Source: Octopus vulgaris (lineage: Eukaryota). Taken from it: DNA of 64,000 nt. Made by a program: the position numbers and the translations under genes. The stretch lies in NCBI GenBank assembly GCA_951406725.2, contig OX597816.1, forward strand, positions 119,722,001 through 119,786,000, written 5' to 3'. The notes under the pieces are model-generated. The model saw nothing but the letters and a program-made list of their open reading frames with translations. It searched no databases and had not been told where the DNA came from. This document shows positions 22,922 to 60,149 of the stretch, piece after piece; position 1 is the stretch's first letter, and each line of letters starts with the position of its first letter.

Positions 22922-23059
22922 ATCAAAGAGGGCGCAATATATGCAAAAATGGCTTGAAAGTCATAACATGCCGGCAGGAAAATAACATCACTAGGTGAGA
23001 CAAGCTGACACCGAATTAGCCTAGCTTAGAGAATGCGTGGGCTAAGACTACGCGCCTTC

Positions 23060-23165
23060 ATTGGTCAGTTAAAGTTGAGACAGTGTCACGTGACAACTTG
23101 CTGGGGCTGCCTGCTGGAGCCTAGCAGCAGGTATATAAAGGGAAATTTGACAAGACAGTCAGTCA
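23060..23165 (+). promoter_or_regulatory. Pol II core promoter of an LTR/pLTR-like cassette
   Basis: ATTGG 23060, palindrome TGTCACGTGACA 23084-95, TATATAAA 23132-39, Inr TCAGTC 23159-64 (A+1 is 29 nt from the TATA start). Confidence 0.7.
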
Positions 23166-23292
23166 CCCGCTGACACTCGTTAATGCTACATCGAAAAGGC
23201 CAGAGAACAGAAGAAAGAAGAAGAAAGAAGACATACACTCAACACCAGAGCTGAAGACACCTCCGAAAGTGGGTGGGGGCGCCACGTCAAAA

Positions 23293-23344
23293 CGGTAGAG
23301 GAATAGAGGCCGAAACCGGACGTGGTTCCTCCTGATGATGTCTT
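23293..23344 (+). ncRNA. Hammerhead-like motif with scrambled strand order
   Basis: CGGT A GAGGAA ta GAGGCC GAA ACCG gacgtgg TTCCTC CTGATGA t GTCTT. Confidence 0.6.
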
Positions 23345-24431
23345 GAGCTAACTAGATCCTATAAAGGAGCTGTTGTGGTAGCAGACCGCGAAACACGGTT
23401 GAAATTCCTCCTTGGGAGGTATCGTGTGGCTGACTGCAGGATCTTGTGGGTGACTACAAATAGAATATTTGTATCTTTATTTTTCACACCTACCCTGAGC
23501 GTTTCTCTGTAAGGTAAAGATCGGGATTTCCTTTGCTTTTGTTATGGCATGCTGAATTAACTTGGGATATTTTTGTTTCTGAAGGAAACATACATTATAC
23601 ATTTATGCGTGTTTAGGAAACGTGTCTAAATATACTGTTGTAAAAAAAAAACCTCTCCATTGCTATGTTTTATGATTCACCATGCCATGATGCTCAGTTG
23701 TATCAGTCTTATTTTCTGTATCTACCGTAGCGATATAATAGTGAAATATTTTTTTTCCTTTCTAGTCTCCCGGTTCACATGAAACACTGAAAGGAAACTT
23801 GAACAATGAATTGTAAAATTATAAAAGCGGTGTAGGATTTGTAAATTCTCATCCATACTTTAAATAAACCATTATGAATTCAAGACTGCACTAAAAGCAC
23901 ATACCTAAGGTGTTGACTAGTGCGATCGAACCCATAAACAACGTAGCTACGAAACGAACTTCGTAGCAACCCAGCCATCCCCCCAGTTAATATATAGATA
24001 TTTTTGCAGCCCTACCATCACTTACTTATGCCAACGTACCACCAAAATATTAAATGCCTTTGTCACGTTTTACAAAAATTGATTGCTTGATTGATTACTC
24101 GCTATCGCAGTAAGTTCAGCTATTTTTTAAGAATGATTACTAAACAAAAATTTTTTTGATAGAAATTTTACAGTTCTCGCAAGTTTTGTTGATATTAATT
24201 ATGCAGTCCATCTTTTATTTAATATATAATATGTTGTGCGAGTTGTAGGTTATACAGAAATATCAAAAACAAAAGCGAACGAAATAATATACAAATATGT
24301 TTCTATACGTAGGTACATAAAACGATTTCTTTCAGATAGTCATGGCGATATTGTTCGTAAAGTAGTGCAAAATACATTCAAATAGGAATAAGCTGACATA
24401 TATTAGGGAACAGACAGATTGATAGATAGAC

Positions 24432-47934: not shown

Positions 47935-48802
47935 CTTGTCATTAGACTGTGGCCATGCTAGGGCACTGCCTTGAAGGGTTAAGTCGAACGAATCGACCCC
48001 AGAATTTTTGTTGTTGTTGGTGGTGGTGGTGGTGGTGGTGGTGGTGGATGGGGCAGTTAAATCTGGTACTTGTTCTGTTGCTCTCTTTTGCAGAGCCTCT
48101 GAGTAACGAGAACGTAAACAAACCGATACCGGCTGTCAAGAAGTGGTTGGAAGGCAAACATATCACAAACACAAGAGACACACCCAACCACAGACATATA
48201 CGTATAATACATACACACACGCGTGCGCGCGCGCACACACACACACACATATATATATAGGTATGTTGATGCAAACAGGAAAAACAGAACTCAAAATATG
48301 ACTGTATTTTTATTAATATTTAACAGATGCAACAGAGTGACTCAAGGTCTGAGAGTTTCGTGCGTTGGTACTCTATTATTCCAGCTAAATATGTATGTGT
48401 GTGTGTGTGTACCTTTTTCTCTTTTTACTTCTTTCAGTCATTAGACTGCAGCCATACTGGAGTATTGCATTGAAGAATTTTTAGTCGAATAAGTCGACCC
48501 CAGTACTTATTTATATATATATAACTGAACTGCTCAGTTATCGGGGCCGTAAACACTTCAACACCGGTTGTGAAACGGTGGTGCAAGAACAGACACGAAG
48601 ACACACGCACACACACACAATTTTCGTAGCTTAGTTTTTCCTTGGGGCTGGCCAGATCGAAGCGATCTCAAGATTAATCAGCCGAAATTGCGAGGATGAT
48701 CCGGTTCTTGACTGAAGATTGAGGGCTTCGAATGTCCCGTCCGTGTTTTTTGTATCGTCTTCTAAATGTTTTGCGTTCTCGTCCCAGTTTTTTTTTTTTT
48801 AC

Positions 48803-48840
<38 letters not shown>

Positions 48841-58790: not shown

Positions 58791-60149
58791 TATAATGAGG
58801 ATGGGTACCTATCTCACTATTCAACAATTACTATCACATCAACAGCAAAAATCAAAACATCCACACCTACAACAGTAATATCAAATGTATAGAAGTAAAA
58901 TCAAAAACAAATTCAGTAATAGTATGATCAATCATAATATCAACTATAACAAATATATGAAAAACAAGACAACAATATATACTACTCTAATAAAGAACAA
59001 CAGCTGGTGTCAAAACAAAACCGACAACGTCAGATGCAAGAACAAAACAACTACAGCAATAACAAATTTAACAACAAAAGAGATTTTTTTTTAATAATTT
59101 TAGTTTACAACAGCTGTAATCAGTAGCCACAACGACTAAAACCACAATGTCTACAGCAACAACAACTAAAGCACTAGCAGCACAAAAAATATATAAGCTT
59201 ACTACAAGGCCTGAAAGTAAAGGCAAGGACATAACTTCTGCTGACGACGTCTAATAACTTAGAAACGTTTAGAGTCGTATCCCTTGCTTGCTCGCTCGGC
59301 CGAAGAATAATGATAGCTAACTTTTAATATTTCCTTTTCATATTCATCTGTATTTACCGCTGTTGAGGTTATTATAATTGTGCTCATCGGAGATTGAAAG
59401 TATAAAAAGAATTGCGGCTATCCTCTGTTACTGGAAGTGAAGAAGTGTCATATCCGGCTTGTGGATGCTATAAAAAAAAAACAAAGTCGCAGAGACAATT
59501 AATCAAAGAAGTTGTCAAGAGTATTGTCCCTTGTCTCCCAAAATCTTAGTTATGATGCAGCAAAGAAATAATCAAACCTACATTTTTATCGCTGACGAAC
59601 CAAGACGAACCAAGTGTTACCTAAAAAGGTAAGAAATAATAGTCTGGTTTCCATAAATCCCGTCTTACATTTTTTAAACCTAGAACGACAGATTAAATAA
59701 TATAATCCAAGATACATTATGACTGCAAGTGAAGAAAAAATAAAGTGGTGATAGTTAGAGTGTCTTTTGGTCATAGATCTGCCCAGTCAGGACTGATCTG
59801 AGCCTAATTAAAGTGACAGCAGATATGACAACAACTGGTTGAGCAACCGCAGACACAACATAAACTGCGACAAAACAGCAACAATATGGTACATGTATCA
59901 AGTCGCGGGGACAATTCATCAAGGAACTTGTCAAGAGTTATGTCCCTTGTACCACCATCCCCCCATTCCTCCTCTCACCCACCCACCCCCCAAAATTGGT
60001 GAGTTGTGATGCAACAAAATTATAGTGGGTAAATATGTGTAAGAGGTTTAAAGGAGTTGATAAATGAGAAGGGAGATTTAGGAGGGGTATTGGATGGGTG
60101 CCTAAACCCTTTTCCCCCATGTGTAGGTGCTATGCGTATGTTTTAGTCA

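Follow-up and report, generated by a model that had tools for sequence, protein, structure and literature searches.

The sequence at positions 48662 to 48727 (plus strand) of the window, the whole 64,000-nt stretch of Octopus vulgaris DNA that was analyzed, most probably belongs to the 3′ end of a Penelope-like, non-autonomous retroposon and carries a full hammerhead core in non-circular strand order; its RNA is predicted to fold as a kink-turned hairpin with two pseudoknots and with the core open at A9/G10.1, a ribozyme that likely cleaves itself after C48667 and would thereby cut tandem transcripts into unit-length templates. Comparison of the sequences of many copies established the element, its conserved core, stems I and III, an upstream stem II, and helices E, H, and P0. 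It also revealed a kink-turn consensus and showed that genomic 5′ ends are in excess at the predicted cut or below it.

The letters of the site were checked against the initial annotation, and all blocks named there were present: GCGAT (48662-48666), C (48667), TCAAGA (48668-48673), AGCC (48680-48683), GAA (48684-48686), ATTGC (48687-48691) followed by 14 nt, TCTTGA (48706-48711), CTGAAGA (48712-48718), TTGAG (48719-48723), and GGCT (48724-48727). The annotated order of cleavage site, GAAA, and CUGANGA was confirmed. A descriptor of that reading matched once in the whole window, at this site, and had no match in 200 block-wise dinucleotide shuffles searched on both strands; a looser descriptor without stem II found this site and one at 23293 in the window and gave three matches in 200 shuffles. 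The motif is real and not due to chance, as had been argued. A chance arrangement, or the simple TCGAAGC/GCTTCGA hairpin that had been named as a competing fold, is practically negligible as an explanation: the long hairpin was indeed the MFE structure of the isolated window stretch (z −0.65), but across the family 77.2% of its cells were paired against 77.1% in shuffles, with no excess covariation, so that it was rejected for the family, and the chance reading is opposed by the empty shuffles. The Rfam scan of the window showed no hammerhead family among the 150 matches listed of 317, and that of a complete copy of the element gave no hammerhead and two weak snoRNA matches. A canonical type I hammerhead through a downstream TTC-GAA-TGTC was tried and rejected on its sequence, which has neither A15.1 nor a stem III or stem I partner. 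The circular block order C-G-S of types I, II, and III without core pseudoknots was not found either; the order is S-G-C.

The motif was located at the 3′ end of an ~830-bp Penelope-like retroposon (family 1) that is non-autonomous and has no long ORF. A GAAA-to-core pattern that left stem I free gave 3,736 exact matches genome-wide and none in the control, and variant stem I strands surfaced among them. Copies of the family (1141 candidates) share a common 3′ end in (TA)n, vary in their 5′ ends, and occur as partial head-to-tail tandems; several are preceded by their own partial 3′ end or by an inverted copy. Partial tandems (pLTR), inverted 5′-truncated copies, (TA)n targets, and a fixed 3′ end are marks described for Penelope-like elements (PMC8557442), and their presence here supports the suggestion of a Penelope-type carrier. 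An autonomous partner was sought among 30 GIY-YIG loci and was not found there; what family 1 shared with them was confined to (TA)-rich ends. What had been described as a short cassette between (CA)n and poly-T proved to be a 5′-truncated, subfamily A copy of the longer element, spanning 48624 to 48808 (+) and running at its 3′ end into (TA)n (right edge approximate). A CACGTGAC box was also observed ~250 nt upstream of the motif in family 1.

More distant relatives, reached by walking outward, gave subfamilies D, F, and G. In D, one base is added to both stem III strands. In F, two stem I pairs are changed and the annotated stem II partner is replaced by AACT. In G, three stem III and three stem II pairs are changed, with the stem II partner upstream (GGGCA/TGCCC vs GGCTG/CAGCC); a GGGTA-like partner had been predicted for G from one decayed copy, and with TGCCC/GGGCA as the actual strands the pairing held and the letters differed. 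Among four regions, the motif was the best conserved in 8 of 10 subfamily pairs. Loose ends of four sequencing-run contig sets pointed to further subfamilies, and at L174:136-231 another subfamily variant was noted, whose stem III shows the compensatory change GTAAT/ATTAC and whose kink-turn has U at 2n.

Fifty copies from the five subfamilies (up to 12 each) were aligned, with rows chosen for presence of the core; three copies with deletions, one each from D, G, and B, were left out. C3, U4, G5, A6, G8, and A9 were invariant in 50/50 rows, the core being itself the criterion for row selection, and N7 varied. Together with G12, A13, and A14 these make up the hammerhead core, which is likewise present in the three further families described below (families 2 and 3 and Naiad). 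The A15.1-U16.1 pair was UA in all 50 rows, and N17 was C, A, or U, with G in 0/132 family 1 copies and 0/22 family 3 copies. Paired cells amounted to 95.0% in stem I (four of six pairs with compensatory changes), 97.2% in stem III (three of five), and 95.2% in upstream stem II (three of five); these changes represent about a dozen events and not hundreds, since copies and subfamilies are related and cells overcount them. The annotated stems I and III were upheld by pairing and compensatory change in five subfamilies; the annotated cleavage triplet, with a predicted cut after C48667, was supported as well. In keeping with the check that the annotation had proposed, the family consensus retains the CUGANGA/GAAA core, and the simple-hairpin fold stays at shuffle level. 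The whole-structure covariation score was 0.256 against 0.142 in shuffles, of which 0/500 scored as high; two of five whole-structure measures (both-side changes and pair types) were no better than shuffle. Of copies with G at stem I position 1.4 (201 matches), 91 had C and 9 had T at the partner position among the 100 matches listed, by eye. Only 76.9% of helix E cells were paired, in part owing to a one-column register shift of subfamily G. Defects included an A.C mismatch in stem I (10/27 subfamily B copies), an unmatched extra base in stem III (7/27 B copies), and A.C in helix E (at least 15/46 A copies); in addition, stem I of D closes with A.G, and P0 of A and B has U.U beside A9.

The revised fold departs from the initial annotation mainly in stem II. 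The annotation paired AGCC with the downstream GGCT and thereby placed a 5-nt insertion after A9. According to PMC10085705, insertions above 1-2 nt between CUGANGA and its stems are not known, which made this insertion a weak point. The downstream pairing was found in 80.5% of cells, is lost to AACT in F, and reaches at most 2 bp in G, whereas the upstream strand finds its partner in every one of the five subfamilies. The stem II partner is therefore predicted to be the upstream GGCTG (48646-48650, the proposed 10.1-10.5 strand), with the core opened between A9 and G10.1. As GGCTG pairs with CAGCC, no 5-nt insertion arises, and TTGAG becomes part of a P0 strand. The annotated fold, a type-SGC hammerhead (PMC10085705) with downstream stem II and a 5-nt bulge, is accordingly unlikely, even though the AGCC/GGCT pairing is present in the majority of copies of A, B, and D (each pair in 36-39 of 50 rows) and type SGC cleaves in vitro (PMC10085705): besides the losses in F and G and the unprecedented insertion, families 2, 3, and Naiad have no downstream stem II partner, and in complete copies the downstream strand pairs within P0 (MFE). 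It could nevertheless serve as an alternative conformation in A, B, and D, and as the only one for truncated copies like that of the window.

From 5′ to 3′, the strands of the revised fold run P0, H, stem II (10.x), E, bend, stem III, cut site, and stem I, followed by a 5-nt linker, stem II (11.x), GAAA, stem III, bend, E, stem I, CUGANGA, and P0. Helix E, the kink-turn, hairpin H, and the closing helix P0 were absent from the earlier reading. Helix E joins the far sides of stems I and II. In subfamily F, A9 is followed by six bases that pair with the hexamer immediately 5′ of H, and H in turn runs up to G10.1. Two adjacent helices are thus predicted to take the place of the A9-G10.1 link; we infer that P0 and H stack as a four-way junction. 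The bend matches the kink-turn consensus in the five subfamilies, with three bulged bases of which the middle is a fixed A, then GA against GA, so that the standard layout of a 3-nt bulge and tandem G.A/A.G pairs between two helices (PMC4382518, PMC5061560) is present in each. At 3b/3n, subfamily G has C/C and the other four have U/G; as 3n=G or 3b=C permits kink-turn folding in metal ions (PMC4382518), all five subfamilies agree with that rule. The bend differs from standard kink-turns in its placement in a hammerhead stem III and in giving way to a plain 4-nt bulge in family 2 and some family 3 copies; in the window copy it is disrupted at 2n. P0, H, E, and stem III were recovered in the MFE structures of complete A (L003) and F (L203) copies; for subfamilies D and G, family 3, and Naiad the MFE structures lacked the nested part. 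A descriptor of the revised fold matched 82 times across 1.70 Mb of loci, whereas 5.12 Mb of shuffled window sequence gave no match.

In the window copy (all features on the plus strand), the 3′ strand of hairpin H occupies 48628-48645 (helix 2 of the alignment, 95.1% paired, and present in the MFE of L003 and L203) and is followed by GGCTG. The 5′ strand of helix E, CCAGATC (48652-48658), carries one A.C mismatch and pairs with GATCCGG (48698-48704) in the alignment and MFE. The non-bulged kink-turn strand 3n-2n-1n (48659-48661) is GAA here and GGA in 40/46 subfamily A copies. Next comes block S (48662-48673), with stem III strand GCGAT, C17, and stem I strand TCAAGA, then the linker between stems I and II (48674-48678; 5 nt in all five subfamilies) and block G (48679-48691), with CAGCC for stem II, G12-A13-A14, and ATTGC for stem III, as seen in the letters and alignment. 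The bulged kink-turn strand (48692-48697) consists of the 3-nt bulge GAG and then G-A-U (1b, 2b, 3b). The returning stem I strand and C3-A9 lie at 48706-48718, and the P0 3′ strand (48719-48734; helix 1, MFE), which takes in both the annotated insertion and the annotated stem II strand, has no partner in this copy. Because the P0 partner and the 5′ half of H are gone, 2n has changed from G to A, outside the kink-turn consensus, and E contains A.C, the window copy, truncated and mutated, probably has an impaired ribozyme; the annotated fold is the sole one still open to it.

A second example of the layout occurs in the window at 23249-23349 (+), in the 3′ UTR of a different, unrelated retroelement (family 2), so that the annotated independence of the two sites was upheld. 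The AUC triplet was not shared as had been claimed, the triplet at 23293 being GUA. Here P0 is formed by 23249-23259 and 23339-23349, H starts at 23260, helix E is 7 bp (23282-23288/23319-23325), an A4 bulge serves as the bend, and stem III (23293-23296/23315-23318), A17 (23297), stem I (23298-23303/23326-23331), and the core (23332-23338) follow. Upstream stem II (GGC/GCC in the window copy) is limited to 3 bp there and in most copies; of 29 copies parsed, four reach 5-6 bp. Upstream of the motif lies a 284-aa ORF that matched no Pfam family and no PDB chain, and whose motifs suggest that it may be a HERO-like endonuclease of the R2-type restriction-like class. Motifs resembling CCAAT, E-box, and TATA elements were noted ~120 nt upstream of the family 2 ribozyme (window 23050-23140 (+), L046, and L054), an arrangement that might let the 3′ end drive transcription of the following copy.

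A third family was uncovered by the revised-fold descriptor, with 2,642 pattern matches and one in the control; its 5′ strands are kept in 22 of 34 copies. Stem II is GAAGG/CCTTC and P0 CCCCT/AGGGG, with no linker in most copies, and N17 is U or C. In stem I, 123 of 132 cells were paired, and 0/2000 partner shuffles reached as high. A plain 4-nt bulge replaces the kink-turn in family 2 and in some family 3 copies. Copies of families 1 and 3 often lie within ~1 kb of one another (G000:C1 near 2.63, 2.80, 11.48, 43.93, 50.38, and 64.34 Mb), probably through shared (TA)n hot spots. Candidate hammerheads of other kinds were also seen: a minimal type I with palindromic AACGTT stem III at window 59235-59280 (+), a type I core at window ~1245-1300 (−) in a repeat also found in L089, and a minimal type I at the end of a Neptune-like element (RT and GIY-YIG) in L072, L079, L086, and L090 (~2650-2720), the last with palindromic stem III and an apparent U3-A8 core by eye, and missed by CUGANGA searches.

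For Naiad elements, no canonical hammerheads were reported and eight families were marked ‘HHR_half_core’ (Craig et al. 2021, PMC8557442); a lone half core is noted there, and no fold is proposed. The last ~600 nt of 13 Naiad consensus ends from its supplement, 4_Dst not being one of the 13, were read by eye. Naiad_Ovul and Naiad_Obim show the split-core layout with a full kink-turn at their 3′ ends, and the Octopus Naiad 3′ end had 412 matches in the genome, nearly identical to the published Octopus Naiad ends. It shares its fold and not its sequence with family 1. By eye, the 3′ ends of Naiad_Parc, 3_Nbra, Hpol, and Smim read as complete type-CSG hammerheads that have stems of 4-10 bp plus an interaction helix. 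In Naiad_Esco, stems I and III and helix E fit, and stem II is imperfect. On this reading by eye, six of the eight ‘half-core’ entries are non-circularly permuted hammerheads. No core was seen by eye in the last ~600 nt of Naiads Omin, Adux, Sdum, 3_Dst, and Tama. The ctenophore Naiad_Bfor agrees with the split-core layout in stem III, in upstream stem II, and in a helix E of 16 bp, but its stem I has only ~2 bp.

Genomic 5′ ends bear on cleavage. Among 49 position-ordered family 1 copies, 14 ended at or below the predicted cut against 2 in the 40 nt above, and both of the latter were inverted junctions; for family 3 (30 copies) the figures were 8 and 4, and a Naiad sample (20 copies) had no excess, with 3 and 4. 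By eye, 24 of 27 (TA)n junctions lay at or below the site, 5 of them at it and none 1-11 nt above; 8 of the 27 overlap the family 1 sample, and (TA)n microhomology blurs 5′ ends by a base or two. An excess of this kind could instead come from stalling of the reverse transcriptase. The family RNA likely self-cleaves after N17, judging from sequence, and the related SGC and CSG topologies cleave in vitro (PMC10085705). That cleavage has been lost, leaving a conserved hammerhead-like fold as a binding or stalling site for reverse transcriptase, is very unlikely. Most family 1 copies (35/50) run through the site, some subfamilies have stem defects, and for one tested Penelope-like element, PAc, hammerhead cleavage was dispensable for insertion in vitro (PMC11167929); against this, four unrelated families preserve the catalytic nucleotides and obey the NUH rule although their stems vary freely, and the 5′ ends mark the predicted cut. 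Read-through is also expected from uncleaved or re-ligated circular templates.

In the self-cleaving reading, stem III and helix E would form first, giving a hairpin with the site and GAAA in its loop of 20 nt, and the kink-turn would bring the hairpin base up to the loop. The 5′ flank would then make stem II and the 3′ flank stem I, supplying CUGANGA, and stacked P0 and H would hold A9 beside G10.1 as a four-way junction. Most likely, each ribozyme in a tandem transcript would cut it into monomers, which may become circles; circularization of type I retrozymes occurs with RtcB (PMC7229834). Reverse transcription would begin internally, at a fixed position that lies ~120 nt downstream of the cut, an internal start being known for one Poseidon element (PMC11167929), and the resulting copies would stop at the cut or run through into partial tandems. 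The same pairings might be made between two RNAs or tandem units, as a strand-swapped dimer like that of minimal Penelope hammerheads, and cleavage of such hammerheads as dimers is known (Lunse 2017, from its title). The elements do occur as partial tandems, and covariation is blind to pairing in cis or trans, but stem III is not palindromic, and the bend between stem III and E (kink-turn or 4-nt bulge), which a monomer needs and a dimer does not, is kept in every family; the dimer is thus quite unlikely.

The topology class of this strand order was described in 2023 (PMC10085705). Type SGC (HRIMA-1, with examples from metatranscriptomes) is like the motif in its order of site, GAAA, and CUGANGA, its full core, its short linker between stems I and II, and an extra helix joining the other sides of these stems, here helix E. 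It differs in that the motif has its stem II strand upstream, block C split at A9/G10.1, all three linkers closed, and a kink-turn or bulge joining stem III to E. Type SGC as defined has block C intact and the stem II strand within 1-2 nt of A9; with its partner upstream, the motif would work like SGC but is no member. Type CSG, known from two sequences (PMC10085705), has the same ring order of blocks and an interaction helix, and is opened in the G-to-C linker with block C whole, whereas the motif is opened inside the core. CSG, SGC, and the motif thus share one ring order and the same extra helix and differ in the point at which the ring is opened. The minimal type I hammerheads found in Penelope-like elements and in non-LTR retrozymes (PMC4209133, PMC7229834, 10.64898/2026.07.22.740005) resemble the motif in their location near the 3′ end (pLTR), their tandems, and the proposed cutting of tandem RNA into monomers or circles; unlike it, they are circularly permuted and lack core pseudoknots.

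In the open-access text searched, no split-core or kink-turn hammerhead and no hammerhead lacking a covalent A9-G10.1 link was found, and non-circular permutations appeared only in PMC10085705. Term searches showed no such fold in PMC3088659, PMC10162972, PMC13725137, or two 2026 preprints; ‘additional helices’ variants cited in PMC13725137 were not traced to a structure. The supplement of PMC10085705 makes no mention of Octopus, Metazoa, Eukaryota, Naiad, or nematodes, and of retrotransposon only in one reference. Non-circular permutations (SGC/CSG) are known, and the predicted split core, the predicted kink-turn, and the occurrence in animal retrotransposons appear to be new. There is a good probability that the motif represents a seventh, core-split permutation, an active ribozyme in which A9 and G10.1 are unlinked and held by a four-way junction while a kink-turn closes the strand ring, present in several unrelated cephalopod retroelement families and part of a wider unrecognized non-circular set in nematode, spider, and mollusc Naiads, which would overturn the picture of Naiads as elements without hammerheads.

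Eckert et al. 2023 (PMC10085705) assume that the CUGANGA block is uninterruptible; the predicted fold would break that assumption, and the six-permutation scheme and its descriptors would miss this class, which in one genome numbers at least 6,790 exact pattern matches. The kink offers a solution to how stem III reaches the stem I-II helix, left open in 2023, and a core joint closed by outside helices beside a predicted L7Ae-type binding site may provide a handle for switchable ribozymes. For the elements themselves, the finding would move non-circularly permuted hammerheads from metatranscriptome RNAs into animal retrotransposons, and it would explain the apparent lack of hammerheads in Naiad and make the ‘half-core’ puzzle testable.
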